This document shows, one piece after another, positions 10,019 through 36,202 of a stretch of 52,728 nt of DNA. A program made the position numbers and the translations under genes. The stretch lies in the NCBI GenBank assembly GCA_964504365.1, contig CAZDDW010000007.1, positions 1-52,728 on the forward strand, in the 5' to 3' direction. This stretch comes from an uncultured Gammaproteobacteria bacterium (GTDB lineage: Bacteria; Patescibacteriota; Patescibacteriia; UBA9934; CAZDDW01). The notes below the pieces were generated by a model, which ran no database searches, was not told the DNA's origin, and saw nothing but the letters and a program-made list of their open reading frames with translations. Every line of letters begins with the position of its first letter. Position 1 is the first letter of the stretch.

Positions 10019-10855
10019 TTAGAGCAAGATGACGACAGCGACAACCATCGCCAACAGGATTCGGTAGAAAACAAATGGCCAGTAGCTAATCCTAGAAACT
10101 AAGGCCAATAGGAATTTTATTGCTAAAGCACCGGAAATCATGGCCATGATAAAGCCAGCTAGTAACGGTGCGAATTCGATATTAACAGATCCTGAGGATA
10201 AATCAAGTAAAGACTTGGCTCCTGCTGCCCCGATCGCCGGGACACTGAGCAGGAACGACCAGCGAGCTGCAGTTTTTCGATCTATACCTGAGAACAAACC
10301 GGCTGTGATTGTGATACCGGATCGCGAGGTTCCCGGGATCAGTGCCAGAATCTGAGCCAGTCCGATCACGATAGCCTGCCACCATTTTATATCCTGTATT
10401 TTCCTAGCCGCTTTAGCGGCGTCTCGATTCAAGACGGGGCTAAAGCCCCTGGGAATTCTTTGTGAAACAACATCAGCTGCACCAAGCACGATCGCCCAGA
10501 GTACAAGCGAGACCACGACCACGACTGGAGTGCGCAAGGTACCTTCGATAAGATCGCTAGCAAAATATGCAACAGCAAGAACAGGAATTGTAGACACGAT
10601 CAACATCCAAGCCAAAGATCGCTCAGGAGATGATGTTTTAGAAAAAAAAGCGCGGATTAGTTTTTTAATGTCGCGTCGCAGAACAACCAGCACAGCAACT
10701 AAAGTCCCAAGATGTACCACGATATCGAAAGCCAGATCCTGCAACGGCCAACCAAAAAACTCAGGAACTAAAATCAAGTGCCCTGATGAGGACACTGGCA
10801 AAAATTCTGTCAGTCCTTGAATGAAGCCTAGGATTATTGCTTGTAGTACTGTCAT
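10019..10855 (-). CDS. uppP: Undecaprenyl-diphosphatase
   Basis: GLTEFLPVSSSGH and PGTSRSG motifs; multiple TMs. Confidence 0.96.
   Translation of the reverse strand: MTVLQAIILGFIQGLTEFLPVSSSGHLILVPEFFGWPLQDLAFDIVVHLGTLVAVLVVLRRDIKKLIRAFFSKTSSPERSLAWMLIVSTIPVLAVAYFASDLIEGTLRTPVVVVVSLVLWAIVLGAADVVSQRIPRGFSPVLNRDAAKAARKIQDIKWWQAIVIGLAQILALIPGTSRSGITITAGLFSGIDRKTAARWSFLLSVPAIGAAGAKSLLDLSSGSVNIEFAPLLAGFIMAMISGALAIKFLLALVSRISYWPFVFYRILLAMVVAVVILL
10401..10455. repeat. REP-like hairpin doublet inserted in frame in uppP
   Basis: GCCGC-TTTA-GCGGC and GGGGC-TAAA-GCCCC closed by TTCCTA/TGGGAA; encodes IPRGFSPVLNRDAAKAAR. Confidence 0.75.
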
Positions 10856-10863
10856 AGATATTT

Positions 10864-10923
10864 GGGGACCGACACGCGTAAGCGTGTCATCTTAATCGAC
10901 CCCGCCATGGCGGGGTCGATCCC
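10864..10923. repeat. REP-like hairpin doublet
   Basis: GGGACC-GACACGC-GTAA-GCGTGTC plus a second hairpin GACCCCGCC/GGCGGGGTC, closed by GATCCC. Confidence 0.8.
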
Positions 10924-10924
10924 G

Positions 10925-11584
10925 TCAGAGCCGTGATTCAATCCAACTAACAACTATGCCGATCAACTCCGGCTTAGCATGCAACATATCATTTGCATGC
11001 CCGATCTTTTTCTCTTCAATCTTTTCTGTCACATCAGGTCGTAGCTCATGCAGTGCCTTTATACCTTCGAATGCACGATGTGTGTCATCGTTACTAGCCA
11101 CGAGCAAAATCTTCTGGTCATCTGTGATGCGCTTTATCAATTTATCTGTTTTGATTCCATGATAATCCAGAGCCGGTGACAATGACACACCGGTTTTAAT
11201 TCCTGGCCGATCACCCATAATCTTGATTACTAAATTCGCACCAATCGATCCACCAACCATGATCGTATTTGCATCTGTCGCACCCTGCTCGGCCAACCAA
11301 GCCAAACCACTTCGTACATCATGAATCTTTTTTTGTTGTTCCTGACTTGTAAATTGCATGTAATCCAGTGTTCCACCCTCAGTTGATTCACCATGTCCGC
11401 GCTCGTCAATCGCCAGCGAAGCAATGTTCTGTCGTGCTAATGCCGAAGCAAGTTCTTTCCAAGTCTCCTTGGTCGCTGGCATCATGTGCAACAACAAAGC
11501 AAAAGCCTTTGGCGATTCAACCGCGTAGTAATCTCCAACAATTGTAATTCCATCATCGGTTTTAAAAGATATCTTTTCGGACAT
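10925..11584 (-). CDS. Alpha/beta hydrolase
   Basis: LLLHM, IDERGHGES, GGSIG nucleophile elbow, C-terminal GH. Confidence 0.9.
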   Translation of the reverse strand: MSEKISFKTDDGITIVGDYYAVESPKAFALLLHMMPATKETWKELASALARQNIASLAIDERGHGESTEGGTLDYMQFTSQEQQKKIHDVRSGLAWLAEQGATDANTIMVGGSIGANLVIKIMGDRPGIKTGVSLSPALDYHGIKTDKLIKRITDDQKILLVASNDDTHRAFEGIKALHELRPDVTEKIEEKKIGHANDMLHAKPELIGIVVSWIESRL

Positions 11585-11723
11585 AATTGATATTCATTAA
11601 TCGTTCCTTGTCATATTGAAATTGCAAAGATTCTCCTGGATACAAATTGCCACGAATCGGATCGACTTCGATCACTTCGTTAATTTCGTCTTCGATCAGA
11701 TTGTCCAGGAAGTTGATTTTCAT
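11562..11723 (-). CDS. Small hypothetical protein (53 aa, MKINFLDNLIEDEINEV...)
   Basis: Below the ORF-track cutoff; fills the gap between a REP and the hydrolase, overlapping the latter by 23 nt. Confidence 0.45.
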   Translation of the reverse strand: MKINFLDNLIEDEINEVIEVDPIRGNLYPGESLQFQYDKERLMNINYVRKDIF

Positions 11724-11729
11724 AAATTC

Positions 11730-11786
11730 GTAGGGACCGACAAGCGTCAGCTTGTCAATTTGACAGGCTTACGCCTGTCGATCCCT
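11730..11786. repeat. GTAG-type REP doublet
   Basis: GTAG-GGACC-GACAAGC-GTCA-GCTTGTC and inverted GACAGGC-TTAC-GCCTGTC-GATCCC. Confidence 0.85.
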
Positions 11787-13526
11787 TCATCTATTCTCCA
11801 TATAAACACGATAACACGGCTTACAGTAAATCTTGCGCTGTGGAAAAGCTAAGTTCTTTGCTACAGTTAGCGCCGTATTACACTTATCACATTTTGTTTC
11901 TTCAAACACAGCAATGTTAGCCCGACGAATCATGTTCTGCATACGGTATACAGGATGACAGTTAGGTGGCGCGATATTGAACTTGCGATAATACTCTATC
12001 TCAGGTTTTAAGAAGGCAAAACGTCGTCCATGCTCTTCATCCATGATCGGCACACCAACCCAATCTTCCGGATCAAGCTCTTCGGCTGTGTCTGGAATGT
12101 CTTTGTTCGATCGGGTTTTTGAAGAATCAATTAAATCTTCACCAATCGCACCCTCAGACTCTGGATCAAAATCTAATGCACCAAGTTTCTTCCCTGTCTC
12201 TTTATCAGCCCCAAAGTACAATGCTGCTCCAGACTGTGGAAAATAACACGGTGAATATTTGAGTGGAAAAAACTGACCATACTCCCCCACTTCTAACATC
12301 TGTAGTTTGATCTGATCAACTAGTTTCCAATACTCTTCTTCGGAATATTCTTTGTTAAAGATACAAAACTTCTTACGCTGCAAACCAATACAACCAAAAC
12401 AATTCTCGCAATTATAACAAGCTGTGCAATATTCAAGGTCCTGCGCATTGTTACATGAAAAACAAAAACGACAATTAATTCCCTGACTCATATCAACACA
12501 ACCATAAGAGTCAGCAACATTGTAAACACTAATACAATAAGCATTGTCGTGTGTATCCTGAGCAACAAAACTACATCGATACAAATCACGGGCCGCTTTT
12601 ACACACTGATAACAATATTTGCAATTTCGAGTATTAAACAAATACTCTCCAACAGAACCCTCATCATCAAAACTCATCTTCTCAGGCCAAACGCACTCAC
12701 GCATCATTTGATCAAATTTCTCTTTATATTTTTCAACCTCAGCTCTGGAACGCAAGTTAATTTCTGACATTTTCTCTGCATACTCCTCTTTACTCAACCG
12801 CTCGTTCATGAACAAATATTTCTTACGCTTCCAGTTCGTTGCCCCAAAAGACATTTCAATGTCAGAACACAAAAACAGAAAAGCAGAGCTTTGAATGTTG
12901 TTACAATCACGAATATAGCGAGAGTTGAAAATACGCGCCGCATCATCAACATTAACAGAACGTTGAGCTGTTTCAACGTTGTGTATCTCTGTTGACTCTT
13001 CAACCTTACCAGTCCAAATACAAAAAAACGAATTCTTACACTTGTCATTAAGGACAGTAAAGTAAGAATTAATGTCACCGTATGAATTTAAAGCGATTGA
13101 ATTTTCTGGCACTTCAGAATTACGGGATGCATTCAACGGCACTTCTAGTTGCAGTTCATGTAACTGATCAAAAAACGGACGACCAGACTCGTACTTACGA
13201 TTAACTGAAGAAAAATCCTGATTAAACCATTCCTTGTCTGGCAGAACTTTAATCTTGGTTGCCGGATGCACGTAAGTCAAAATCGGCTTCTTATTCGCTG
13301 GATGACGCTGCCACCACCACTGGTAACCAATCATGTACCCGGCCATGATCCTGTTCCGTGTCAACGGCGCCAAATCGGTCGCCGGTACCTGCATCTTTTT
13401 TAACCAATCAATTTCTTCCTGGTCCAGTTGCCACTTACCATTAGCTAACGGACATGTTCGCTCACCTGGTTTAGTATCAGCAAGCATTTGTTCTAGTCTT
13501 TTGTCGAATTGTGGAGTCTTTGACAT
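11787..13526 (-). CDS. Cys-rich repeat / zinc-ribbon protein, array copy 7
   Basis: Shared MSKTP N-terminus, CxxCxxCFGCxGL..KKFCIFNK motif, C-terminal CxxC..YCxxCY. Confidence 0.9.
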   Translation of the reverse strand: MSKTPQFDKRLEQMLADTKPGERTCPLANGKWQLDQEEIDWLKKMQVPATDLAPLTRNRIMAGYMIGYQWWWQRHPANKKPILTYVHPATKIKVLPDKEWFNQDFSSVNRKYESGRPFFDQLHELQLEVPLNASRNSEVPENSIALNSYGDINSYFTVLNDKCKNSFFCIWTGKVEESTEIHNVETAQRSVNVDDAARIFNSRYIRDCNNIQSSAFLFLCSDIEMSFGATNWKRKKYLFMNERLSKEEYAEKMSEINLRSRAEVEKYKEKFDQMMRECVWPEKMSFDDEGSVGEYLFNTRNCKYCYQCVKAARDLYRCSFVAQDTHDNAYCISVYNVADSYGCVDMSQGINCRFCFSCNNAQDLEYCTACYNCENCFGCIGLQRKKFCIFNKEYSEEEYWKLVDQIKLQMLEVGEYGQFFPLKYSPCYFPQSGAALYFGADKETGKKLGALDFDPESEGAIGEDLIDSSKTRSNKDIPDTAEELDPEDWVGVPIMDEEHGRRFAFLKPEIEYYRKFNIAPPNCHPVYRMQNMIRRANIAVFEETKCDKCNTALTVAKNLAFPQRKIYCKPCYRVYMENR

Positions 13527-13545
13527 AGTGAAACTATTGTACCAT

Positions 13546-13572
13546 GTGGGACCGACAAGCGTAAGCTTGTCA
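13546..13572. repeat. Single REP-like hairpin
   Basis: GGGACC-GACAAGC-GTAA-GCTTGTC. Confidence 0.8.
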
Positions 13573-15306
13573 CCCATTAGTTTCCAAATATTTTAGATAA
13601 CACTCTCGGCAATAAACTTTTCGATCTGGATATGTAAAGTTCTTGCCGATTCGGATTGCGGAGTCGCACTTCGAACAACTTGCATCTTCGAACACGGCTG
13701 TGTTCATTTCTTTCTGAATATCCAACAAGCGCGTAATAAAATGTTTGTTTGGCGGGGCGATTCGTTTTTTATGATACCACTCGATCTCAGGCTTTAAAAA
13801 CGCAAACTGTCGGTTCTTGTCCGGGTCAAACACTGGCTTCCCTGCCCACTCTTCGGCACCGAAGTCATCTAAAGCGTCCGGAATCTGTTCAACAGTCTTC
13901 CCTGTTTCTGGATCAAACTCAGCAAATCCACTGGCCCCGTTCGCATTCGGATCGTATTCATCCACTCCAAGCTGCTTAGCCTCTTTCTCGCCACATCCGA
14001 AAAATGCTGGCGCACCTGCTTCGTAAAAATATGATCCAGAAAAATTAGCTGGGAAAAACTCACCGTACTCGCCACGTTCTAACATGGCACACTTTAACTC
14101 ATCAACACGCTGCCAATACTCTTCTTCAGAATACTCTTTGTTAAAAATATGAAACTTCTTGCGCTGTAGCCCAATGCAACCGAAGCAGAACTCGCAATTA
14201 AAACAATTCATGCTGTATTCCATATCCTGACACTGAATCATATTATAAGAGAACTTGATATTCGAACCTTTCATAATACAGGAATTGTAGCACCGACTAG
14301 ATCCAATGCATGATGAAGAAAAAGCAACATCCTCAGAATTATCAATCGTGTGTGTACAGCAATAAACATTCGGTCCAGAGTTGAGTCCGAAGTATGAGTT
14401 CTTCACATCCGTAACATTTGTTAAGTACTCACCAGTTGATCCCTCGGCCTTTTCATTAAAATTCTCTGGCCAAACTGAATCTTTTACCAACTCTTGGAAA
14501 CGTTGACTGTATTCTTCAAAAACAGAACGCTTACTTAGATCTATCTGAGCCACACGTTCTCGCCACTCATTTTCTGTGAGCTGCTCGTTAAAAAACAAAA
14601 ACTTTTTATTTCTTTTGTTTGTTGCTCCGAAACAATTTTCGCAACGCCGACAGTCGAATAAAAAACTAGATTGGACACAGTCTCTTGAATGCCGAACTGT
14701 GCGGCAGTCATGCAGTCTTTCACTATGCAAAATATCATACGAACCAGTCACGTGGTGACCATAAGCCACTAACATCGAATCTTCACAGCGAAATGCATCA
14801 ATGCTGAAGAATCCATTCTTCATGCTGCAAGCCATGACAAAATAACTATTCACGTCTCCGAGTGAGGTCAAACAGATAGAATTCTCAGGCTCTTCGATAT
14901 TACGGCTAGCATTGAATGGAACGTCGAGCTCGAGCTTTCGCAACTGTTCGATAAAAGACTTTGCGGAATCGTACTCGCGACCAAACGAACTGTAATCATT
15001 ATCAAACCACTCTTTATCTGGAATGGCTTTAATACCACTGTTCGGGTTGTATCCACTGAGCACCGGCTTGTCTGTTTCAGGGTGCTTGTGCCACCACCAT
15101 TGGAAATTTGTAAAGAAACAGCTCAGGATCTTTAACCTGGTCTCAGGCGATCGACGAGATGGTGGTACGTTGAACTTTTTGTACCAAGAAATTTCCTCAT
15201 TCGTCATTTCCCATTTTTCATTCGTTAATTCACAATCCCGCTCGCCAGGCTCGAGCACATCCAAGATCTCTTTAATTTTCGCATCGTATTTTGGGGTTTT
15301 TGACAT
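13570..15306 (-). CDS. Cys-rich repeat / zinc-ribbon protein, array copy 6
   Basis: Same motif set as neighbours; 578 aa. Confidence 0.9.
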   Translation of the reverse strand: MSKTPKYDAKIKEILDVLEPGERDCELTNEKWEMTNEEISWYKKFNVPPSRRSPETRLKILSCFFTNFQWWWHKHPETDKPVLSGYNPNSGIKAIPDKEWFDNDYSSFGREYDSAKSFIEQLRKLELDVPFNASRNIEEPENSICLTSLGDVNSYFVMACSMKNGFFSIDAFRCEDSMLVAYGHHVTGSYDILHSERLHDCRTVRHSRDCVQSSFLFDCRRCENCFGATNKRNKKFLFFNEQLTENEWRERVAQIDLSKRSVFEEYSQRFQELVKDSVWPENFNEKAEGSTGEYLTNVTDVKNSYFGLNSGPNVYCCTHTIDNSEDVAFSSSCIGSSRCYNSCIMKGSNIKFSYNMIQCQDMEYSMNCFNCEFCFGCIGLQRKKFHIFNKEYSEEEYWQRVDELKCAMLERGEYGEFFPANFSGSYFYEAGAPAFFGCGEKEAKQLGVDEYDPNANGASGFAEFDPETGKTVEQIPDALDDFGAEEWAGKPVFDPDKNRQFAFLKPEIEWYHKKRIAPPNKHFITRLLDIQKEMNTAVFEDASCSKCDSAIRIGKNFTYPDRKVYCRECYLKYLETNG

Positions 15307-15317
15307 ATGTTTCGCAA

Positions 15318-15375
15318 GGGACCGACACCCGTAAGGGTGTCACCCTAATTGACAGGCTTACGCCTGTCGGTCCCC
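15318..15375. repeat. REP doublet
   Basis: GGGACC-GACACCC-GTAA-GGGTGTC..GACAGGC-TTAC-GCCTGTC-GGTCCC. Confidence 0.85.
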
Positions 15376-15378
15376 GAA

Positions 15379-17109
15379 TTAACCATTTTGTTCTAAATAT
15401 TTTAGATAACACTCTCGGCAATATACTCTCCGCTCAGGGAACTTCAGGTTTTTGTAAGTGACAATATCGGCCTGACACGAGTCGCATTTGCAAGATTCTT
15501 TAAGTGGTGAATTTGAGTGACGAATCAAATCTGTTAACCGAGAAATAAAATGACGCCGCGGAAACGGCCAACGCTTCTTTTTATAAACTTCAAACTCAGG
15601 CTTGATTACAGAATAATCTCGATCAAGCTCAGGATCATGAATTGGTACACCAACAAAACGCTGTGGATCAATCTCTTCAAGGCAATCAGGAATACTTTCA
15701 ACAGAGACTGATTTTTTCTCAGTATGTTGTGCTGAGAGAACAAGCCCACGACCCGCATCAAGCCTTTTCACTTTCCAATGGTCAAGTTCTTCATCGCTGA
15801 AACCAAAATATATTTGACCAAGTGAATATTGAAAGCCGTGCGAAGCAAACTTTGTTGGCCAAAACTCTCCATATATTCCCTCATCAAGCATGCGGCATTT
15901 TATCTCATCTAATTTCTGCCAATATTCCTCCTCTGAATACTGCTTGTTAAAAATACAATGCTTGCTTCGCTTTAATCCAAAACAACCAAAACAGTTCTCA
16001 CAATCAACACAAAAAGCACTGTACTCACAATTAATCATTGCTTCACCTGCCATACAGAATTTATTTTTTGCACTTCTTGATGTACCTGTATTCAGATACG
16101 TATCTTTGGCCCAACCAGAACCTGAAACATAAGCACAGTTCTCGTTCTCGAGCCCGAATCTGGATCGGTATATATCTGTACTGCGACGCATCCAATAACA
16201 ATCTTCACACCTCACACATTCTAAAACACGTTCACCAGAACTATTTTCATTTCTAAAAGAAAAAGTTTCTGGCCAAACCGTTTCTTCTTCTAATAGTTTA
16301 TGAAATTGCGCACGATACTCCTGAGCAACTGAAAAACATGATAGATCAACTTGCTTGCGACGCTCATGCCATTCTTTTTCTGATAACTGTTGATTAAACC
16401 AAATGTATTTTTTATTGCGCTTATTAGTTGCTCCAAAACAAAATTCACAATTACGACAATCAAAAATATAACTAGAACTTATGCATTCTGATGATTCAAA
16501 AGCAAACTCACAATCAGAAATTTTATCTGACCCATTAACAGAAAAAGATCTGTTAATACCTTCACCGTTTGCAATATCTACTGAGTCCTCGCTGTAGGCC
16601 GCGGTATAGGTGTAGAAACAACGATTAACCATTGAGGCGCAGGCCATAAAACTATCAACTGATCTGAACGAGGCCATGGCAACAGTGTTTTCGCAGGCTG
16701 TGCTACGGGTAGCTTTTTCTGGAACACGAAGACGTAATTTCCAAAACTGATCCCAGATCGGTTCGTTCGAGTTGTATGAAAAACCTTTATCCAAAAAATC
16801 ATGTTCGTCCCATTCGGTATCCTTCATGACTGAAATTTCTGAGTCCGGATGCACTGACGAAATAATCACCTCATCATGAACATCTTTTTTCCACCACAAT
16901 GCAAAACCAGTATTGAACCCGCTTAAATAATTCAAGCGCATCACAGGTTCGGTCTTACTCGGTGGGACATTGAACTTACGACAAATCTCAATTTCTTTCT
17001 CATCCAAAATCCAGGTCTTACCTGATAACGGACAAACTTGTTCTTGTCCTGGCTCAAGCCCGTCAAGGATCTTTTTTACTTTTGCATCGTATTTTGGTGT
17101 TTTTGACAT
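15379..17109 (-). CDS. Cys-rich repeat / zinc-ribbon protein, array copy 5
   Basis: Start set at the conserved MSKTPKYD (17109). Confidence 0.9.
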   Translation of the reverse strand: MSKTPKYDAKVKKILDGLEPGQEQVCPLSGKTWILDEKEIEICRKFNVPPSKTEPVMRLNYLSGFNTGFALWWKKDVHDEVIISSVHPDSEISVMKDTEWDEHDFLDKGFSYNSNEPIWDQFWKLRLRVPEKATRSTACENTVAMASFRSVDSFMACASMVNRCFYTYTAAYSEDSVDIANGEGINRSFSVNGSDKISDCEFAFESSECISSSYIFDCRNCEFCFGATNKRNKKYIWFNQQLSEKEWHERRKQVDLSCFSVAQEYRAQFHKLLEEETVWPETFSFRNENSSGERVLECVRCEDCYWMRRSTDIYRSRFGLENENCAYVSGSGWAKDTYLNTGTSRSAKNKFCMAGEAMINCEYSAFCVDCENCFGCFGLKRSKHCIFNKQYSEEEYWQKLDEIKCRMLDEGIYGEFWPTKFASHGFQYSLGQIYFGFSDEELDHWKVKRLDAGRGLVLSAQHTEKKSVSVESIPDCLEEIDPQRFVGVPIHDPELDRDYSVIKPEFEVYKKKRWPFPRRHFISRLTDLIRHSNSPLKESCKCDSCQADIVTYKNLKFPERRVYCRECYLKYLEQNG

Positions 17110-17120
17110 ATGTATTTTGA

Positions 17121-17171
17121 GGAGTGACAGGCGTAAGCCTGTCATGATGACACCCTTACGGGTGTCACTCC
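17121..17171. repeat. REP doublet
   Basis: GGAGT-GACAGGC-GTAA-GCCTGTC..GACACCC-TTAC-GGGTGTC-ACTCC. Confidence 0.85.
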
Positions 17172-17176
17172 CCGAA

Positions 17177-18907
17177 TTAACCATTTTGTTCTAAATACTT
17201 TAAATAACACTCATGGCAATATACTTTTCTGTTTTGATAAGCCAGATTACGAGCAACAGAAATCTGTTTACTGCATTGTGAACATGCCTGCTCATCAGCC
17301 ACTGCCAAATTTATTTCATTAAACGCTGTCCAGACTTTATTATAATAATGCATTTGCGAGGCCGGTATTCGATTTTTTTGACAGAACCTTAACTCACTAT
17401 CCGTAATTGAAAATGGACGATTGATCTGTTTATCGAGAATCGGCACATTGACCCAGGACTGGTCAACGTCGTCGATATTATCCGGCAACTGATCAACATC
17501 CCGGGCTTCATCTAACCTTTCAGCCAAGGGACCAAAGGCCCCTTTGTCAGAAAGCTGATAATCTGGAAGATCAAATTTTTTATATTCCTCAAGAGTCATG
17601 CCAAAAATCCAACGCCCACCTGTATCCGGAATATAACTTTGCCCCATTGACCAAGGAAAGAAATTTCCATATTCTCCAGCATCCAACATGGCGCATTTTA
17701 ATTCGTCTAAACGCTGATAGTACTCTTCTTCAGAGTATTCCTTATTAAAAATATGAAAACGCTTTCGCTTCAAACCAACACAACCAAAACAATCTTCGCA
17801 AGAGTAACAATTAATACAATACTCACAGCCAATGGAATCTGAGCAGGTCCAACAAAACTTACAATCCTCACTTTTAATCATGACTGAAAATTCATAACAG
17901 TTTGATGAGAAAGGACCGTCACATTGATAACAATCTCGAGCATTGTTGTACCAACAGCCCCAGCCTGAATGATTTGCTTTTTCTCCATAGTAGACATGAT
18001 CACAATCAACACAATCAATTAGATACTCACCGCTACTTGATTCAGAATTAATATTAAAGTTCTCCGGCCAAACAGCTTGTTCATTAACAACCTGTTTAAA
18101 TTGATTATTACTTTGATCAAAGACGGAACGCAGACCCAGGTCAACCTCAGCCCGTCGCTTCTTCCATTCTTCCTCAGAAAGCTGCTCGTTCCACCATAAA
18201 TATTTCTTGTTCCGTTTATTCCAAGCTCCAAAACAATTTTCACAATTTCGACAGTCAAAAATGAAATCACAATTAAAACAGTCACGTGACTCGCGCACGA
18301 CTTTTGAATCAGAGATGCGATATGAATGCAAGACATTAAAGGCCCGGGAAATCTGACCTGACAAAAAGACTTCCATAGCGTCTTCATACTCAATTCCATC
18401 AGAACAATAAAAACTTCGCTTTGACTGCGTGCCGATACAAAAGTAACTGTTTTCGTCACCAAGCGAACAAAGCGTGACTGAATTGATCGGCTCAATAAAG
18501 TTTCGTGACGCGTTGACCGGGACAACTTTAGTCAGGTCTTTTATCTGTTCAAGCGGGGTCCTGTTTGAGTCCACCTCTTGAGCAAGTCTTGAAAAATCAT
18601 CCTGATGCCAGTCTTTATCATTCATCACTTTCCAATCCGTACAAGGATGCACGTGGGTAACAATGCTTTTGTTGGTTTTACAATCAGTGTTGTAAAGCAT
18701 TTGGCAACCCATAAAAAACCCAGTCCGGATCTTCCACCTTGTATACGGCGCCCGATCCGACGGTGGGACATTGAACTTGCAATACCAATCAATCTCAGTT
18801 TGATCCATGTTCCACTTCTCGCCAGTGATTGAACAAGTCCGCTCACCAGGTTCAATGGTGTCGAGGATCTCTTTTATCTTGGAATCATATTTGGGTGTTT
18901 TTGACAT
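17177..18907 (-). CDS. Cys-rich repeat / zinc-ribbon protein, array copy 4
   Basis: Conserved MSKTPKYD start and array motifs. Confidence 0.9.
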   Translation of the reverse strand: MSKTPKYDSKIKEILDTIEPGERTCSITGEKWNMDQTEIDWYCKFNVPPSDRAPYTRWKIRTGFFMGCQMLYNTDCKTNKSIVTHVHPCTDWKVMNDKDWHQDDFSRLAQEVDSNRTPLEQIKDLTKVVPVNASRNFIEPINSVTLCSLGDENSYFCIGTQSKRSFYCSDGIEYEDAMEVFLSGQISRAFNVLHSYRISDSKVVRESRDCFNCDFIFDCRNCENCFGAWNKRNKKYLWWNEQLSEEEWKKRRAEVDLGLRSVFDQSNNQFKQVVNEQAVWPENFNINSESSSGEYLIDCVDCDHVYYGEKANHSGWGCWYNNARDCYQCDGPFSSNCYEFSVMIKSEDCKFCWTCSDSIGCEYCINCYSCEDCFGCVGLKRKRFHIFNKEYSEEEYYQRLDELKCAMLDAGEYGNFFPWSMGQSYIPDTGGRWIFGMTLEEYKKFDLPDYQLSDKGAFGPLAERLDEARDVDQLPDNIDDVDQSWVNVPILDKQINRPFSITDSELRFCQKNRIPASQMHYYNKVWTAFNEINLAVADEQACSQCSKQISVARNLAYQNRKVYCHECYLKYLEQNG

Positions 18908-18918
18908 ATGTTTCATGA

Positions 18919-18976
18919 GGGACCGACACCCGTAAGGGTGTCACTTTAATTGACAGGCTTACGCCTGTCGATCCCC
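18919..18976. repeat. REP doublet
   Basis: Nearly identical to 15318-15375. Confidence 0.85.
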
Positions 18977-18979
18977 AAA

Positions 18980-20716
18980 TTAGCCATGTTGTTCAAGGTA
19001 TTTTATATAACAAGGTTTGCACAGGAATTTTCTTTCTGTAAATTCGATGTTCTTAGCAACCATGATTTCTTTATTACACTCTGAACACTCGGCTGAAGAA
19101 AATGAAAAGCCGTTGGAACCAAAATGCATATCCAGAATGCGTTGGATGAAATGATTATCAGGCGGGAAAAAGTTGTGCTTTTTGTAAAACAAGAGTTCAG
19201 GTTTCAGAAAAGCAAACGGCCGACCCAGTCGATCGTCATAAATCGGCTTCCCTGCCCACTGATCAACATCAACATCATTTATGTCATCCGGAATCTGATC
19301 TGTGCTCACTGGCTCTACTTCAGGCTGCACACCTAAGGCGCCATCGTCCTTAGGATTAAACTTCTTGGCATTTAACTTATCAATAAGATCATCATCACCA
19401 TGCATGAAAACCCTGGCCGCGCTATCTGGCACATAACCATAACTCCATTTTGATGGCAAAAACTCTCCGTATGTTCCCTGCTCAAGCATCTTAGATTTTA
19501 TTTGATCAAGAAGCTGATAATACTCATCAGGCTCATATTCTTTGTTAAAAATATGATAGCGCTTGTGTTTCAACCCTACACACCCAAAACAATCCTCACA
19601 GTTGGAACAAGTGGTGCAGTACTCAAGATTTTGACTGTTCGAACAAGTAATTGAAAATTTAACGTTGTGACAATTAATGCTCGTGATCACATAATAGACG
19701 TCAGAAGAGCCGACCACGCCATGGGCACAATAACTATTTTCGGACCCGGTGTGAAACAAGAAAGAAGACTCATCGCAGCCAATAGCATTGCGGGCAAAAA
19801 AGCAACGCTTGCAGTTGGTTGAGTCAGACAAATATTCACCGCTGCAATTTTCTACATGTTCATTAAAGTTCTCCGGCCATACCGTGTCATTGATCATCAA
19901 CTGATGGAACTTATCTTTCATCTCTTTGAAAACAGAACGCTTTGATAAAGATACCTCGGAACGACGCTTTTTATATTCTTCCTCAGAAAGCTGTTCGTTG
20001 AACCACAAATACTTTTTGTTGCGCTTGTTGGTCGCCCCAAAACAGTGTTCACAGTTTCGACAGTCGAAGACAAAAGCACAGTCAATACAATCCGAACTCT
20101 CACGAACGAATACACCGTTGTGAATGTTAGAACTATGAACAACCTTCAGACAATTACTGGCACTGTGCACATGAAGGCACTCGGAACAGCTTTCAATATC
20201 TGTTGATGTTGTACTAAAGAAAGAATTTCGTGACTTGCTTCCCAAAACAAAATAGCTATCTATGTCTCCCAAAGAAGTGATAGCGATTGATCGCTCAGGC
20301 ACAGTGGTATTGCGCTGAGCAGGAAACGGGGTGTCTAAGAACAACTGATATAGTTGCTCAGCGATCGGCTGATCAAAATTGACGTCACGTCCTTGAGAAG
20401 ACAGATCTAGATCGTACCACTCTTTGTCTGGTAAAACCTTGTATCCGGTAGAGGGATGGATGTGCGACAGAATCGGCTTTCCGGTTTCAGGATGTTTGTT
20501 CCACCACCACTGACAACCTGAACCCCAACAAAAACATAAGCAAGCACGAGTGTATGGCATCATCTTGGATGGTGGGACATTGAATTTGTGATACCAATCA
20601 ATTTCGTTTTGATCCATCACCCACTTCTCTCCAGTCAACGCACAGGTCCGCTCACCCGGTTGAACAGCATCAAGGACTTCTTTAATTTTCGCATCGTAGT
20701 TTGGAGTTTTAGCCAT
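18980..20716 (-). CDS. Cys-rich repeat / zinc-ribbon protein, array copy 3
   Basis: Array motifs; 8-nt ATGGCTAA overlap with the upstream copy. Confidence 0.9.
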   Translation of the reverse strand: MAKTPNYDAKIKEVLDAVQPGERTCALTGEKWVMDQNEIDWYHKFNVPPSKMMPYTRACLCFCWGSGCQWWWNKHPETGKPILSHIHPSTGYKVLPDKEWYDLDLSSQGRDVNFDQPIAEQLYQLFLDTPFPAQRNTTVPERSIAITSLGDIDSYFVLGSKSRNSFFSTTSTDIESCSECLHVHSASNCLKVVHSSNIHNGVFVRESSDCIDCAFVFDCRNCEHCFGATNKRNKKYLWFNEQLSEEEYKKRRSEVSLSKRSVFKEMKDKFHQLMINDTVWPENFNEHVENCSGEYLSDSTNCKRCFFARNAIGCDESSFLFHTGSENSYCAHGVVGSSDVYYVITSINCHNVKFSITCSNSQNLEYCTTCSNCEDCFGCVGLKHKRYHIFNKEYEPDEYYQLLDQIKSKMLEQGTYGEFLPSKWSYGYVPDSAARVFMHGDDDLIDKLNAKKFNPKDDGALGVQPEVEPVSTDQIPDDINDVDVDQWAGKPIYDDRLGRPFAFLKPELLFYKKHNFFPPDNHFIQRILDMHFGSNGFSFSSAECSECNKEIMVAKNIEFTERKFLCKPCYIKYLEQHG

Positions 20717-22442
20717 ACTTTTCTAAATATTCTAGATAACACTTTCGACAATATACTTTCTTGTCTGGATAAGTTGCGTTCTTTGCCACAGTCGCAGCCG
20801 CACCACATGAACCACACTCTTTCTTTTCAAACACAGCGGAATTCTGTTCCAAAAATAAATCAAACACGCGTTTAATAAAATGTTCAGTCGGTACTGGAAC
20901 TTTTTTCTTGCGATAAAAATCAAGTTCAGGTTTCAAATAACTAAACCGTCGGCCCATGGCTTCATCAAGCAACGGAACATTGACCCAATCCTCGTCACTC
21001 ATATCAGAGATACAATCAGGAACCTCGCTAGTCTTACGCAAAGCTGACTCATCAATATCACCAATCGCTCCCTCAGCCTCAGGATCAAATTCCGGTGCAC
21101 CAAACTTCCCTGCTTCATCCTGTGCCATGTAAATAATCAAACCATTGTCCGGCCAATAACTGTAGAACGAGGATGCTGGGAAGAACTGCCCGTATTCACC
21201 TCGCTCCAGCATGGCACATTTAATTTCATCAACTCGCTGCCAATATTCTTCCTCTTCGTACTGCTTGTTAAAGATACAGAACTTTTTATGACGCAGTCCC
21301 AAACATCCAAAACAATTTTCACATTCATACAAGAACGAACTGTATTCAACATTTTGACAAGAAAAAACATTCCAGGAAAACTTAGTGTTTACACATCGCT
21401 CGGCAATGTTGTCTAAATAACAGTTATTCGAACCATATAAACCTCCACAGTAAGCTGAGCTGTGTGTTTCTCCGGCTAGATATGTAACTTGATGCAGGTC
21501 CTGGAAATTTCCATCAGTCCCAGCAAAAACATATTTACAGTTATTAGCGTTGACCATGTATTCACCAAGAGTATTCTGACACTTTTCATTAAAGTTCTCT
21601 GGCCAGACAGTGTTATTCTTCATTAGCTCGACAAACTGATCTTGATATTTCTTTAACGAAGTTCGACAAGAGTAATCTACTTCGGCCCGACGTTTGTGCC
21701 ATTCTGATTCTGTTAACTGTTCGTTAAACCATAGAAATTTTCTGTGACGCTTGTTAGTTGCGCCAAAACAGTTCTCACAGTTGCGACAGTCAAAAAGAAA
21801 AGCAGAATCAAGACAATCATAACAACCGTGAATGAAATCACAGTTGTGAATACGGTGCGATTGCAAAACATGATATGAATCAACCACCTTGCTCCCAGCC
21901 GAAACTTCGGCTGAGCGCTCTAGGTCCATGCCATCAGTACAGTAAAGGCTGTTACGTGATCGAGAGGCCATCATGAAATAACTATCAATGTCTCCGAAAG
22001 AACCCATGGCAATCGAGTTTTCTGGTTTGACAGCGTACCGGCTGGCTGGCAACGGAACCTTGAGTTGCAGACCTTTGAACTGATCAAAAAACGGTTTGTC
22101 AGAATCATATTCAATCGAAGTCCCGAGATAGTCATTTGCAAACCACTCCGAATCAGGCAGGGTAGGAATCTTAGTAACCGGATGAACAAACGAAACAAAC
22201 TGCTTGCCGGTGTCTGGGTGCTTGTGGTACCAAAACTGATACATCTCAAAAAAACCAACCAACTGTTTCATTCTAGTTAGTGGCGACCAGGTGTGCGGCG
22301 GGACGTTGAACTTTTTGTACCAACCAATCTCTTCCTCACCCATCACCCACTTCTCACCAGTCAACGCACAAGTCCGCTCGCCTGGTTCAAGGGCGTCGAG
22401 AATCTCTTTGACTTTTGCGTCGTACTTCGGAGTATTAGCCAT
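20709..22442 (-). CDS. Cys-rich repeat / zinc-ribbon protein, array copy 2
   Basis: Array motifs; 8-nt ATGGCTAA overlap with the upstream copy. Confidence 0.9.
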   Translation of the reverse strand: MANTPKYDAKVKEILDALEPGERTCALTGEKWVMGEEEIGWYKKFNVPPHTWSPLTRMKQLVGFFEMYQFWYHKHPDTGKQFVSFVHPVTKIPTLPDSEWFANDYLGTSIEYDSDKPFFDQFKGLQLKVPLPASRYAVKPENSIAMGSFGDIDSYFMMASRSRNSLYCTDGMDLERSAEVSAGSKVVDSYHVLQSHRIHNCDFIHGCYDCLDSAFLFDCRNCENCFGATNKRHRKFLWFNEQLTESEWHKRRAEVDYSCRTSLKKYQDQFVELMKNNTVWPENFNEKCQNTLGEYMVNANNCKYVFAGTDGNFQDLHQVTYLAGETHSSAYCGGLYGSNNCYLDNIAERCVNTKFSWNVFSCQNVEYSSFLYECENCFGCLGLRHKKFCIFNKQYEEEEYWQRVDEIKCAMLERGEYGQFFPASSFYSYWPDNGLIIYMAQDEAGKFGAPEFDPEAEGAIGDIDESALRKTSEVPDCISDMSDEDWVNVPLLDEAMGRRFSYLKPELDFYRKKKVPVPTEHFIKRVFDLFLEQNSAVFEKKECGSCGAAATVAKNATYPDKKVYCRKCYLEYLEKYG

Positions 22443-24165
22443 ATTGTTCTAAGTATTTAAGATAGCATTCATAGCAATAAATTTTACGATCTGGGAAAGC
22501 GCGGTTTTCGTTTACCGTTATCTTCTTCTGACAAACAGCACATTCCGCAGGAATACGGCACGCATTATTAACTTGATTAACCAACTCTTTCATTCGCGCG
22601 CGATAATGCTCTTTAGGAAACGGATAACCTTTTTCTTTCCGATGCTTTAATTCTTGTGCACTAACATTATATTGCCGTTCCTCAGCCACATCTTCAAATT
22701 GAACCCCAACCCACTCATCACCAACATCTTGAATACAATCAGGGGCATCTTTTGGATCTCGTTTTTGTGCGTCATTTGTATATGGTGCGTAACGCATGGC
22801 ACGTTTCGGATCGAACTTAGCCACATCCATGCGATCCAATTCTTCTCGAGTAAACGGAGAAGTCAAAGACGCAAAAGAGATCTCTGGTGGCTGTGTACCC
22901 AAATAAGATGGGAACCATTCACCATACTCACCGCGATCCAGCATCGCACACTTCAATTCATCAACCCTTGGCCAATATTCTTCTTCAGAGTATTGCTTAT
23001 TAAAAATACAAAAACGTTTTTTCTTTAATCCAACACATCCAAAACAGTCTGTACAATCAGTAGTTCGAATACAGTATTCAATGCCAGAACATCGGCTGGG
23101 AACATAACTGAATTTAACATCCTGACTAGCCAAGGAAACACAACTTAAATAAACATCTTGCGAATCATTCCCAATAACAACTGACTCACAGTTTCGTGAA
23201 TTAAACATAAACCAAGCATCATGCACATCGGTTGTATCCGTATTAAAATATCCACTAGAACGAGTACAGTCTAAGAGATAATCGCCTTCACACTCAGAGG
23301 TGTTGGTACTAAAATACTCTGGCCAGATGGCTTGATCATGCAAGATCTTATGAAATTTTTCTTTATACTTCTGTAAGGTTGAGTTACATGACAAATCAAT
23401 TTCAGACATTCTTTTTTGATATTCTTCTTTAGTCAACTGCTCATTCATAAAAACATATCTCTTTCGTCGCAGATTTGTTGAACAGAAGCAAAACTCACAA
23501 TTACGACAGTCAAACAAAAACTCAGAATTCATACAGTCTATACTATCGAATACCTGTGTACACCTGTTCAAACGAACAGACATACAAGAAGAAAATGTGT
23601 TTTCGCAATTTTCTAAAAAAGCCACATCTGTGCAGCGATCAACTTGTTTACAGCGAAAAGTAAACCATGAATCTTTGGCCTGATAAGTTCCGCACACCAC
23701 AAAACTATTAATACATTTACTAAAACCGTTTCCGATACAGCCCTCAGAATCATAAGCAAAAAAAGCGCCCACAGGAACATTCTTGATTAACTCTTCTTGC
23801 TGCTTAAAAAATGATTTACTGAAATCATAATCCATTGCTGCCTCATCTCCATAGTCCCGAGCCGCAAACTCAAGATCACCCACAACCTGAACAAGTGAAT
23901 CAGGATTAATACAAGATAAAATCGGTTTTTTGGTCTCAAAATGCGGCTTCCACCATAAATCAACTCCAGAGCCCCAAGTTGCCAAAACCCTCATACGAGT
24001 AAATGGACTAAGTTTACTTGGTGGCACACGCCATTTACGACAGCGGTCAATATAAGCCTGGTCCAACTCCCATGTCTCTCCTGAAATCGGACAAACCCTC
24101 TCGCCGGGTTCGAGGGTGTCGAGGATTTCCTTTACCTTAGCATCGTATTTGGGTGTTTTTGACAT
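22435..24165 (-). CDS. Cys-rich repeat / zinc-ribbon protein, array copy 1
   Basis: Start set at the conserved MSKTPKYD (24165). Confidence 0.9.
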   Translation of the reverse strand: MSKTPKYDAKVKEILDTLEPGERVCPISGETWELDQAYIDRCRKWRVPPSKLSPFTRMRVLATWGSGVDLWWKPHFETKKPILSCINPDSLVQVVGDLEFAARDYGDEAAMDYDFSKSFFKQQEELIKNVPVGAFFAYDSEGCIGNGFSKCINSFVVCGTYQAKDSWFTFRCKQVDRCTDVAFLENCENTFSSCMSVRLNRCTQVFDSIDCMNSEFLFDCRNCEFCFCSTNLRRKRYVFMNEQLTKEEYQKRMSEIDLSCNSTLQKYKEKFHKILHDQAIWPEYFSTNTSECEGDYLLDCTRSSGYFNTDTTDVHDAWFMFNSRNCESVVIGNDSQDVYLSCVSLASQDVKFSYVPSRCSGIEYCIRTTDCTDCFGCVGLKKKRFCIFNKQYSEEEYWPRVDELKCAMLDRGEYGEWFPSYLGTQPPEISFASLTSPFTREELDRMDVAKFDPKRAMRYAPYTNDAQKRDPKDAPDCIQDVGDEWVGVQFEDVAEERQYNVSAQELKHRKEKGYPFPKEHYRARMKELVNQVNNACRIPAECAVCQKKITVNENRAFPDRKIYCYECYLKYLEQYG

Positions 24166-24174
24166 ATGTTGTAT

Positions 24175-24229
24175 GGGAATGACACACTTCAGTGTGTCAT
24201 TGGGTGACAGACTAAAGCCTGTCATTCCC
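24175..24229. repeat. Divergent REP doublet
   Basis: GGGAAT-GACACAC-TTCA-GTGTGTC..GACAGAC-TAAA-GCCTGTC-ATTCCC. Confidence 0.75.
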
Positions 24230-24296
24230 CACTTAAAATAGACGGATAATTGCCCGTCTATATTAACACTTTAAGCTTATGTTGTCGAAACTTAAT

Positions 24297-24325
24297 TTGA
24301 CACCCTTACGGGTGTCGGTCCCTAC
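24297..24325 (-). repeat. GTAG-type single REP overlapping the ATPase stop codon
   Basis: Minus strand GTAG-GGACC-GACACCC-GTAA-GGGTGTC. Confidence 0.8.
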
Positions 24326-25740
24326 ACAATAACCTCAGATTCCTCAATCTTTTCCACCTTTTCCTCTTCCATATCCCCTGCCTCAATTGTCTTTTCAACC
24401 ACATCCTTTGGCCGAGCATACAACTGACGAATATTCTCAACAACCTTTTCCGTGTACGGCGGATGCTTTGGTGCAGTCACGGTTAAAACGTCTGCAGAGA
24501 ACGGATCCCAGCGTTTGCCATCGATAGTCATCTTAACGTAAATCTCTCGCTCTGCCAGGTTGATCATGTCTGATACTTCAAAGACTGGTTTCATTTCCTG
24601 TTCCATAATCGCTGCGTCTTCTGCAGAAATCTGGAAAACGATCATTGAGGCCACGTTTCCAAACAAAGCTGACCGCAAAGTTGGTGACAATTGCGACAGG
24701 TTCTGGTTAGCAACAGTCAAAGCAATGGCAAACTTTCGCGCCTCAGCCAAAATATTTTCAAAAGTCTTGGTAGCAATGTTTTGAAACTCGTCAACGTACA
24801 AGTAAAACGGTGTGCGCTCATCGCTTGGCAAGCGAATGCGTTGCATGGCTGCTTGATAAATCTTTGTAATCAACACAGCTCCAAAGAAAGCTGACTTATC
24901 ATCTCCAATTCGCCCTTTAGACAAGTTAACCAAGAAAATCTTTTCGTTCTGCATGATGTCAAAAAAATCGATCTTGTTGTCTTGCTGGCCAAAGATATTA
25001 CGCATCAGCGGATCAGATAGTAGCTGTCCGAGTTTATTCAACAAAGGCGATACTGCTTCTGCATCATAACGCTGTGACCATTCTGGAAACTCAATTGCCC
25101 AAAAACGGCGCACCACAGGATCCTTAATATGCTCAATCACCTTTCCACGATAAGGCCCACTAGATAACAAAGAGACCATGCCGTTCAACGTACCCTTAGG
25201 ATAATCAATCATGGCCAAGGTTGAAAAACGAAGCAAGTGTTCGATACGCGGTGTCCAATCAGAAGCAAACTGCTTTTTGAAAATCTCAATCATCGAATCC
25301 GTAACCATATGCTTGTCTTCTTCAGCAACATTAGCGATCGGATTAAATGAGATTGGAAAGTCTCGATCAGCAGGATCGATCAGCACCACATCCTCAATAC
25401 GATTCTCTGGCAAAAAATCCAAGATGTCCTGAATCAAATCTCCGTGAGGATCAATTACTCCTAGCCCGTGGTCAAAAAAGATGTCGGCCCGAATAAAGTG
25501 CTCAAGCAGCTTGGTCTTACCAACTCCACTTTTCCCAATAACATACAAGTGACGCCGACGATCACGGCGCTTAATACCAAAAACGTAACGCTTAGTTGAA
25601 AAACCAGAGCTATAATTCGAACGACCAAAAAGTGACAGATCCTCAGGCGGAACGTCTTCTTTGGTTGGAATTGTATCAGGTGGTTCGTGACGTCGAGCTA
25701 CAAATGTTTCTAGCTCGCCACCACCGTACATGTCGGACAT
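24322..25740 (-). CDS. VirD4/TraD-like (HerA/FtsK superfamily) ATPase
   Basis: DRRRHLYVIGKSGVGKT Walker A, IDPHGD, LYVDEFQN Walker B, EARKF, ANQ; start moved to ATG 25740. Confidence 0.9.
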   Translation of the reverse strand: MSDMYGGGELETFVARRHEPPDTIPTKEDVPPEDLSLFGRSNYSSGFSTKRYVFGIKRRDRRRHLYVIGKSGVGKTKLLEHFIRADIFFDHGLGVIDPHGDLIQDILDFLPENRIEDVVLIDPADRDFPISFNPIANVAEEDKHMVTDSMIEIFKKQFASDWTPRIEHLLRFSTLAMIDYPKGTLNGMVSLLSSGPYRGKVIEHIKDPVVRRFWAIEFPEWSQRYDAEAVSPLLNKLGQLLSDPLMRNIFGQQDNKIDFFDIMQNEKIFLVNLSKGRIGDDKSAFFGAVLITKIYQAAMQRIRLPSDERTPFYLYVDEFQNIATKTFENILAEARKFAIALTVANQNLSQLSPTLRSALFGNVASMIVFQISAEDAAIMEQEMKPVFEVSDMINLAEREIYVKMTIDGKRWDPFSADVLTVTAPKHPPYTEKVVENIRQLYARPKDVVEKTIEAGDMEEEKVEKIEESEVIV

Positions 25741-25746
25741 ATTATG

Positions 25747-25861
25747 GAAATGACCAATGATCAATAATCAATGACCGAGATAATAAACAATGATCTAATT
25801 TTCGAACATTGATTATTTGGTCATTATCTTGATCATTGTGATTTGGTTATTGGTTATTTTA
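25747..25861. repeat. Inverted array of degenerate heptamers (AATGACC / GGTCATT type)
   Basis: AATGACC-AATGATC-AATAATC-AATGACC on the left and complementary heptamers on the right form a long imperfect palindrome between the ATPases. Confidence 0.7.
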
Positions 25862-25865
25862 TTTC

Positions 25866-27701: not shown

Positions 27702-27704
27702 AAG

Positions 27705-29438: not shown

Positions 29439-29495
29439 AGTTTGGACAAATTATACCATGTCTTAACCTAAATCTTAAGTTAAATTATAAACAGG

Positions 29496-30377: not shown

Positions 30378-30378
30378 A

Positions 30379-34056: not shown

Positions 34057-34114
34057 GATTACCTCGGTTGAAAATACCCCTGACCAGTCGTATGGCCAAG
34101 GGCATGAGTCGGTC

Positions 34115-35203: not shown

Positions 35204-35233
35204 GTTGTCCTCCGTTGGTGAACAGGGAAATAA

Positions 35234-35260
35234 ATTATCATGGTCATCATCCTTTGTCAA
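35234..35260 (-). promoter_or_regulatory. Promoter of the two-gene operon, divergent from the RNA cluster
   Basis: TTGACA..GATAAT on the minus strand. Confidence 0.55.
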
Positions 35261-35308
35261 GTATTTACCCAAAAATTAGCTAAAAAATGCCGATATTTTA
35301 AGTAAGGG

Positions 35309-35337
35309 TTGACAGATTTAAACAGATGCTATATAAT
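35309..35337 (+). promoter_or_regulatory. Perfect-consensus sigma70 promoter P1
   Basis: TTGACA-17-TATAAT. Confidence 0.85.
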
Positions 35338-35343
35338 TCTGCT

Positions 35344-35767: not shown

Positions 35768-35770
35768 AGC

Positions 35771-35799: not shown

Positions 35800-35805
35800 A
35801 TCCGT

Positions 35806-36151: not shown

Positions 36152-36167
36152 CTGTGGATAACTAGAT

Positions 36168-36196: not shown

Positions 36197-36202
36197 GCGC
36201 AT

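Follow-up and report, generated by a model that had tools for sequence, protein, structure and literature searches.

The window analysed here is a 52,728-nucleotide stretch of DNA (GenBank assembly GCA_964504365.1, contig CAZDDW010000007.1), and its positions 11787-24165 are filled by seven intact, co-oriented genes on the minus strand that encode cysteine-rich paralogs of 576-579 amino acids (aa). An initial annotation of this DNA had described seven such ~577-aa genes with conserved ends, and the open reading frame (ORF) list and the protein alignment placed them exactly there. Counted from the conserved M(S/A)(K/N)TP start, the copies are c1 (22435-24165, 576 aa), which adjoins the ATPase gene T4CP2, c2 (20709-22442, 577 aa), c3 (18980-20716, 578 aa), c4 (17177-18907, 576 aa), c5 (15379-17109, 576 aa), c6 (13570-15306, 578 aa) and c7 (11787-13526, 579 aa), the last of the array. 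At the c1/c2 and c2/c3 junctions the genes overlap by 8 nt, which puts the start codon of the second within the conserved ...YG-stop end of the first; the remaining junctions are spacers of 43-72 nt. An alternative start of c4 at 18916 would add 3 aa. In the c5 ORF an upstream ATG at 17184 falls within the conserved ...NG-stop end of c4; we take it as accidental, because its 25 extra residues have no counterpart in the other copies.

A profile built from the seven proteins gave every copy an E value between 1e-266 and 1e-289, which excludes chance as an explanation for array membership. The other six array copies are 33-38% identical to c1 in the alignment. A profile search of the window's own genome (1.07 Mb in 19 contigs, 98.9% complete; referred to as G000, the other G numbers denoting comparison genomes) detected an eighth full-length copy on another contig (G000:C2:123672-125405, E 2e-225), so that the annotated count of seven holds for the array but not for the genome. 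All 28 pairs among these eight copies are 33-49% identical, with a mean of 40%. The scaffold motifs FLFDCRNCExCFGATN, VWPENF, CFGCxGL...IFNK and VYCxxCYLKYLE, which had been noticed beforehand, were present in the alignment. The predicted absence of signal peptides was likewise borne out, the N-termini of the seven copies being hydrophilic and none of the seven containing a transmembrane (TM)-like segment in a Kyte-Doolittle scan with 19-residue windows. The array family appears to consist of cytoplasmic proteins.

To describe the fold we modelled c2 with AlphaFold2. The model, built on 73 sequences, is confident (predicted local distance difference test (pLDDT) 91.2, predicted TM-score 0.90) and predicts an alpha/beta fold for the N-terminal residues 1-130, followed by two strand ladders (135-240 and 279-395) that are split by helices at 245-276 and would form two narrow beta-solenoids, a helix at 397-413, a less regular acidic stretch to ~490, and a C-terminal part finishing in a zinc-finger-like hairpin. 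A hexad-like spacing of 6 residues between strands is seen at 202-217. In an exhaustive structural scan the best match was a ryegrass ice-binding protein (3ult_B, Z 5.4 over 95 aa, root-mean-square deviation (rmsd) 2.7), followed by beetle antifreeze protein (1ezg_A) and autotransporter heads at Z 4.8. These weak matches reflect generic solenoid likeness rather than kinship, and together with the confident model they bear out the beta-solenoid that had been guessed from the repeats. Foldseek with the whole c2 model returned nothing from the PDB at E<=0.001. Its weak top rows were left-handed beta-helix acyltransferases (best E 1.5e-3, template-modelling scores 0.06-0.18), which reached only Z 2.0-3.7 in the structural scan, and the Hexapep families of Pfam gave no row for any of the seven copies at E<=1.

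Profile-profile comparison matched the N-terminal finger module to the C-terminal one (E 5e-30) and the solenoid-plus-cap half A to half B (E 1e-35). These matches show two internal duplications, one of the terminal modules and one of the solenoid halves. The predicted architecture reads: double zinc-finger module, narrow beta-solenoid with cysteine-rich cap (twice), acidic linker, double zinc-finger module.

The zinc sites are best seen in the classical members of the family, which are more distant proteins of ~550 aa that carry a pair of CxxC...CxxC sites at either end, four in all. Conservation of the zinc-site cysteines ranges from 60 to 100% over 121 sequences, and some of these members reach the cut-offs of zf_Tbcl_2 and related models (for PF23477, with a cut-off of 27 bits, P0185 scored 27.8, and P0143, just below, 26.2). 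In the Uhrbacteria-type subfamily to which the window belongs, three of the four sites lack their cysteines, leaving C25 and H521 as relics, and only the last, a C-terminal CxxC-x18-CxxC, is intact; it is present in all seven window copies. Among 57 Uhrbacteria-type copies, C543 and C546 are each kept in 57, C565 in 56 and C568 in 48, with Asp in a further 7. PF23477 and TIGR04272 gave no row for the seven copies at E<=1; since their profile score lies below the curated cut-off, the finger domain is assigned to them by homology within the family. The name zinc-ribbon protein given in the initial annotation consequently suits the C-terminal site and not the other three.

Cysteines are frequent elsewhere as well, at 25-34 per window copy and 19-36 across all 57. 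Cap A (CX8CX2CX2C) keeps C210, C219, C222 and C225 in 51-55 of the 57 copies, and cap B (CX2CX2CX2C) keeps C371, C374, C377 and C380 in 50-57, with position 389 after it occupied by Cys in 36 and His in 20. This pattern would suit structural metal sites. In c7, two of the three CxxCxxC cysteines of cap A are gone. The net charge of the C-terminal module is +1 to +6. The idea that the proteins mimic DNA was dropped, as the solenoids are nearly neutral (net 0 to -3 for A and -2 to -11 for B) and the acidity lies in the linker.

Database searches did not give the family a name. Pfam and NCBIfam hold no family for the seven copies, apart from sub-threshold finger matches at the C-terminus; a sequence search of the PDB with the family profile returned only chance-level finger matches (E 0.46 and 0.67); the ESM Atlas yielded only 'hypothetical protein' clusters without a Pfam family; and a literature search by domain names, Uhrbacteria and cysteine-rich paralogs found nothing on the family itself. 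A search of 1.84 billion representatives retrieved 3,599 clusters at E<=0.001 and 1,354 at E<=1e-30, and the named homologs were almost entirely from Candidatus Uhrbacteria and other Patescibacteria. The family was found in 13 of 201 genomes sampled across the phylum and in 13 of 41 genomes of the order, both counts including G000. Its description as common and uncharacterised in the candidate phyla radiation is thus apt as regards characterisation and the number of clusters, but only a minority of genomes carry it. No fused family forms of 964-2750 aa were found, which is weak evidence. The sole fusion seen was P0237 (731 aa), in which a GNAT acetyltransferase domain precedes a full classical member; in G238 a stand-alone GNAT gene is found ~1.5 kb away from a family copy.

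Directly upstream of c1, on the same strand, lie two paralogous ATPase genes. T4CP2 (24322-25764, minus strand) encodes a VirD4/TraD-like ATPase of 480 aa without a TM segment, with Pfam matches to TrwB_AAD_bind, T4SS-DNA_transf and TraG-D_C and weak NCBIfam TraD/VirD4 matches. T4CP1 (25866-27701, minus strand; 611 aa) has a CxxC-x17-CxxC finger and ends in a basic, low-complexity tail whose last residues are FPW, and its orthologs have both features in 4 of 4 genomes. By sequence, the nearest solved chains to the ATPase motor are TrwB and DotL. Beyond T4CP1 follows a gene for a 577-aa protein with one N-terminal TM-like segment (27705-29438, minus strand), which we call the N-domain protein. 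This ORF was considered as a further array copy and rejected, for it has no similarity to the family despite its equal length.

Residues ~100-450 of the N-domain protein are homologous, by BLAST and alignment, to the 280-aa N-domain of fused ATPases. A model of this domain (pLDDT 84.3) matched 7o42_A (TrwK/VirB4) with Z 15.1 over 245 of 280 residues (rmsd 3.8), the next row being at Z 9.0. The N-domain is therefore predicted to have the fold of a VirB4 N-terminus, although the VirB4 sequence family PF03135 has no match in the genome at E<=0.001 and all AAA_10/PF12846 matches are below the cut-off. T4CP2 is 44-47% and T4CP1 46-49% identical to the fused ATPases, so BLAST identity does not separate them; T4CP2 and the family-adjacent fused ATPases of other lineages have a common acidic tail with a hydrophobic tip, from which we infer that T4CP2 is the ortholog of the fused forms. 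One ancestral VirB4/VirD4-type gene looks to have become three genes in the window's order, encoding the N-domain protein, T4CP1 and T4CP2, with T4CP1 probably having gained its finger and basic FPW tail. Every one of the 41 genomes of the order contains the N-domain, most of them at two loci.

The second N-domain locus, seen in nearly every genome of the order, is of the kind represented in G000 by a third ATPase of the same superfamily (G000:C5:26219-28789, L037 9219-11789), an 856-aa protein with N-domain and motor. It lies among small ORFs without a Pfam family, which could be membrane parts of a type IV system.

In order to determine whether the position of the array beside the ATPase genes is conserved, we compared the loci of related genomes. 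The genes occur in the order SecD, SecF, a one-TM protein of ~555-580 aa, T4CP1, T4CP2, array and BacA, with a hydrolase before BacA in some. The array lies between ATPase genes and BacA in G000, G003, G005, G008 and G017, that is, in five genomes representing three families and four genera of the order. The series is complete, with the alpha/beta hydrolase, in G000 and G003; the slot of G008 has neither the T4CP2-type gene nor the hydrolase; and the fetched loci of G005 and G017 hold the ATPase gene or genes and the array, followed directly by BacA in G005. The fetched loci of G001 and G002 show only the ATPase side and only the hydrolase-BacA side, respectively. SecDF and the N-domain protein are upstream wherever the fetched locus reaches them (G000, G003 and G008). 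The slot holds 1 copy in G003, 6 in G005, 7 in G000, at least 8 in G017 and 10 in G008. The eighth copy of G000 has a locus of its own beside a radical-SAM gene, which is common to G000 and G002.

Similar adjacency was found across the phylum. The 12 other family-bearing phylum genomes contain 1, 2, 2, 5, 6, 7, 9, 10, 10, 15, 15 and 26 matches, some of them fragments, the 26 being in a genome of 0.9 Mb. Searching these 12 distant genomes with the ATPase profile identified 1-5 genes each, the best-scoring subtype being a protein of 730-760 aa. The gene for this subtype lies no more than 2 kb from a family copy in 8 of the 12 (G121, G071, G238, G204, G181, G067, G112 and G158, six families by their codes), at distances of 9 to 1,773 bp; as related genomes are not independent, no P value is attached to these counts. 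In the closed genome of G238 the only two copies flank the best-subtype ATPase. Of 27 other ATPase hits, only one lies within 5 kb of a copy, and that one is beside the best subtype. The family is therefore encoded beside a VirD4-type ATPase in several lineages.

Other genes are occasionally associated with the arrays of relatives. A PemK/MazF-like toxin gene, Fic/DOC genes (one fused to a DeoR helix-turn-helix domain) and a RhuM-like gene lie in or at the edge of the G002 arrays, a Fic gene is similarly placed in G071, and TrmB-like regulators are interspersed in the G071 and G121 arrays; the toxin-type genes in relatives' arrays are at L009 6052-6450, L009 8945-9997, L020 14527-15174 and L007 10734-11228. 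A 168-174-aa protein without a Pfam family adjoins a family copy both in G003 and in the distant G204 (L012 6293-6817 and L027 9185-9691), and the pair is 65% identical, unusually conserved for such distant genomes. Apart from this protein, the small ORFs beside the arrays have no common family.

The initial annotation had regarded the array as a diversified recognition repertoire. To establish the age of the copies, we built a tree of 57 full-length copies from seven genomes: the window's own and six relatives, of which two share its genus, one more its family, and three belong to other families of the order. To be included, a copy had to cover at least 540 of the 580 profile positions. The eight G000 copies occupied eight rows with eight label changes, and none paired with another; each had instead a well-supported sister or small clade from other genomes. 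The sister of c1, G001_L002_4661-6397, is 66% identical and is likewise the first copy after the ATPase in G001. Orthologs of c2 (81% identical) and c6 (62%) were found in G001, of c4 (83%) in G002, of c5 in both G001 and G002 (~65%), and of c7 in G002 (73%) and G003 (59%), the last being the sole copy at that locus there. The nearest relative of c3 was G017_L016_16747-18570, on long branches, and c3 is at most 46% identical to any copy. The eighth copy grouped in a four-genome clade. Orthologs stand at differing ranks in different arrays, although the end next to the ATPase is repeatedly taken by the c1 type and the opposite end by the c7 type.

We then compared identity per 15-residue block, using 14 ortholog pairs and taking residues 166-210 and 301-360 as the solenoid rung blocks. 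Between paralogs, the rungs are 0.17-0.33 identical and the caps 0.58-0.74, confirming that a conserved scaffold surrounds variable, paralog-specific repeats. Between orthologs the same rungs are 0.66-0.74 identical, and identity is evenly spread over all blocks (0.55-0.87). Among the neighbouring genes, BacA and the hydrolase show 76% identity in the G000-G002 comparison and 62-64% in that of G000 with G003, and SecF is 71% identical. Because the copy orthologs (59-83%) match these genes (62-76%), their divergence is at the housekeeping level.

Synonymous sites were saturated in most ortholog pairs (proportion of synonymous differences 0.7-0.9). In the sole unsaturated pair, two near-copies in G002 with a synonymous divergence (dS) of 0.82, the ratio of nonsynonymous to synonymous divergence (dN/dS) was 0.08 for the whole protein and 0.016 for the rungs. 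The DNA repeats shared by the copies are 60-87% identical and include none of the long identical tracts expected of gene conversion. Four marine or seawater metagenome runs (two studies) contain the array, on short contigs of low depth, and gave no variant rows. A single contig of run X3 connects 15963 with 17771 and so omits 1,807 nt, or about one gene unit (c5/c4). With only 24 letters on its shorter side, this joint is too weak for a deletion variant to be called; it could be a rare variant of that kind or an artefact of assembly at a conserved motif.

These results demonstrate that the eight copies are ancient, individually conserved paralogs under strong purifying selection. One-to-one orthology and uniformly spread variation, which the initial annotation had named as the outcome that would overturn its view, are largely what was found, except that copy number is not fixed: 28 of the 41 genomes of the order have no family match, and the others have 2, 3, 6, 7, 8, 10, 11, 12, 17 or 18. 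The question of whether the copies form a DIVERSIFYING repertoire is answered in the negative. We conclude that this array, with its seemingly hypervariable segments, is an old, stable set of specificities and not an arms-race locus.

What, then, might the proteins do? We propose that the family consists of fixed-specificity binding proteins that are clients, either cargo or substrate adaptors, of the neighbouring VirD4/VirB4-type ATPase, a reading to which we give a probability of roughly 0.45. The two solenoids would form a rigid chassis with caps and termini common to all paralogs, and the rungs of each paralog would present its own fixed binding surface and target. The common parts would dock to a common partner, most likely the soluble VirD4/VirB4-type ATPase, which would make the family its client set. 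The finger of T4CP1, of the same kind as that of the family, was also counted in favour of the link to the ATPase. A complex prediction of T4CP2 (residues 40-463) with c1 scored 0.00 in two runs made without controls and counts neither way.

Several observations weigh against a client role. No copy lies beside the best-subtype ATPase in 4 of the 12 distant genomes. Within the order, the ATPase module is present in 41 of 41 genomes and the family in 13, so the ATPase works without the family: the module is core and the family accessory. Inheritance alone, without any functional tie, could account for the conserved neighbourhood. A rigid protein of 577 aa with bound zinc is an awkward secretion substrate, and in the seven copies Pfam showed no known translocation signal or domain (BID, XVIPCD and similar) and no effector domain.

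Of the alternatives, the one that survives best, although we consider it unlikely, is that the proteins are autonomous zinc-finger and solenoid binders of nucleic acid or protein, acting in regulation, and that their place beside the ATPase is inherited synteny. The terminal treble-clef-type fingers and the positive charge of the C-terminal module would suit such a role, as would the 28 genomes of the order that keep the ATPase module without the family and the copies at other loci, such as that beside the radical-SAM gene. Adjacency in 8 of 12 distant genomes from six families would, however, be hard to keep without selection, and three of the four zinc sites have been lost in the window's subfamily while the fold was kept.

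Rather less probable, in our judgement, is a sharper form of the client reading, in which the paralogs are effectors that the ATPase passes to a type IV-like channel for delivery onto or into the epibiont's host cell, with a different host molecule as the target of each solenoid. Because the family adjoins a VirD4/VirB4-like ATPase, the secreted effector of the initial annotation is still conceivable. The VirB4 fold of the N-domain would also fit, and multi-paralog arrays are usual beside secretion ATPases. In Patescibacteria, the main text of PMC12102498 describes tandem arrays of 2-11 diverged VirB2 pilin genes, ~25% identical, near virB4. Against export stand the lack of a signal peptide, TM segment or known translocation domain in the proteins, the lack of TM segments in the ATPases here, the absence from the genome of a clear PF03135 match, with AAA_10 matches below cut-off, and purifying selection at the housekeeping level rather than host-driven change.

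We regard as improbable a role in metal or redox chemistry, in which the caps would bind zinc or an iron-sulfur cluster and the proteins would serve as metal store, redox buffer or cluster carrier. The abundance of cysteine, the conserved cap cysteines and the alternation of Cys and His at position 389 point this way, and small CxxC-x17-CxxC proteins of Methanosarcina bind zinc by inductively coupled plasma mass spectrometry (PMC12704099). The c7 orthogroup, however, is conserved despite the loss of most cap-A cysteines, the solenoid cysteines alternate with Ser, as suits small packing residues, and a storage role needs no eight diverged paralogs.

Least credible of all is a fast-diversifying recognition repertoire, as an immune sensor or in an arms race, for which the tandem array, the paralog-specific rungs, the swings in copy number (0-18 in the order, up to 26 in the phylum) and the toxin-antitoxin, Fic and RhuM genes in or beside relatives' arrays might speak, but which is largely refuted by orthologs across genera diverging evenly at housekeeping rates, by the low dN/dS, by the lack of near-identical tracts or of variants in the four runs, and by PADLOC-DB 2.0, in which c1, c2 and c7 (three of the seven copies) and the classical member P0185 matched no family, leaving the suggested immunity or sensor role without support.

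The client reading could extend well beyond the window. The main text of PMC12102498 counts 5,713 VirD4-like T4CPs in 2,918 Patescibacteria genomes, only 148 of them near virB4, and leaves the role of the rest open. It also describes TrsD as a VirB4-N-terminal-like protein. That main text contains the word 'zinc' nowhere and 'cysteine' once (about VirB1), and its section 13 does not mention the family. It is conceivable, if doubtful, that the orphan VirD4/VirB4-type ATPases carried by nearly all Patescibacteria at a distance from their type IV secretion genes have their missing clients in this family, and that the two form an undescribed ATPase-driven system. If so, a panel of zinc-finger-capped solenoids, each with its own fixed target, would be handled, and perhaps exported to the host, by a hexameric motor that has a VirB4-like N-domain; such a panel can occupy 3-5% of a 1-Mb genome. 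The genomes of Patescibacteria are tiny, and yet in some lineages a considerable part is given over to this one unnamed family. With a conserved gene pairing and a confident predicted structure, the role of the ATPase becomes testable at the bench.

The spacers of the array hold a further feature, a ~60-nt palindromic element of three stems, in which an outer stem closes two hairpins (21 pairs, 6 of them with compensatory changes in 5 copies). One copy lies just after the c7 stop (11730-11789), others at 13544-13589 (half an element), 15315-15378, 17117-17176, 18916-18979 and 24172-24233, and weaker ones at 10862-10927 and 24284-24326. The element ends ~10-14 nt before the start codons of c1, c4, c5 and c6. 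A covariance model (R1) gave 55 matches with both strands counted, or ~28 sites, on 10 contigs of the genome; it also detected the element in the G001, G002 and G003 loci and found none in those of G005, G008, G017 or the distant genomes. Rfam gave nothing at gathering score on the array or the whole window, and a CRISPR-DR36 match (E 0.6) was rejected as a chance match to a palindrome. The element thus appears to be a repetitive extragenic palindromic (REP)-like dispersed element of the genus or family that is over-represented around the array. Promoter and terminator scans of 10800-30500 gave counts at the level of shuffled sequence (35 against 39.8 and 18 against 16.8, respectively), and no RNA data are listed among the eight sequencing runs.

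Two other regions of the window stand out. Positions 32689-37620 are GC-rich (0.51-0.54, against ~0.41 in the array) and contain two large ORFs without a Pfam family (485 and 385 aa) and a ~1.9-kb stretch without any ORF of at least 90 aa (35703-37621); a suhB/mmgR-like Rfam match at 35702-35773 (E 0.009) is below the cut-off. The minus-strand gene at 6732-9302 encodes an LVIVD-repeat, beta-propeller-like protein of 856 aa whose N-terminus is hydrophobic. Its identity to the G002 counterpart is only 48%, against 76% for the adjoining genes, and the G002 version also has YadA-head repeats. The protein is fast-evolving and likely lies at the cell surface.

Several known systems resemble parts of this locus. 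In Bartonella, virB/virD4 stands with the bep genes, a VirD4-type coupling ATPase with a tandem array of substrates. As there, diverged paralogs with conserved ends and variable middles lie in a row beside an ATPase of the VirD4 superfamily; the window's family differs in that it has no BID-like or other known translocation domain and is under housekeeping-level constraint, and its ATPase is soluble, with a VirB4-like N-domain. Each solenoid half resembles the narrow solenoids of the Lolium perenne ice-binding protein (3ult), of Tenebrio TmAFP (1ezg), which is rich in cysteine, and of trimeric-autotransporter heads. The Z scores of 3ult and 1ezg are in the generic range, however, at 6-8% identity, and those proteins are secreted, so that neither ancestry nor function is implied. 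The beta-helix acyltransferases LpxD, GlmU and LpxA share the 6-residue strand spacing and supplied the top Foldseek rows, but at the poor scores given above and without a Hexapep match.

The zf_Tbcl_2 or CxxC-x17-CxxC treble clef (TIGR04272, PF23477) is the counterpart of the C-terminal CxxC-x18-CxxC of every window copy, although it covers only ~35 of 577 residues and matches no window copy at E<=1. Finally, the VirB2 arrays and orphan T4CPs treated in the main text of PMC12102498 come from the same phylum and involve the same ATPase superfamily and tandem diverged paralogs; their arrays encode small membrane pilins, whereas that of the window encodes 577-aa proteins that are probably cytoplasmic.

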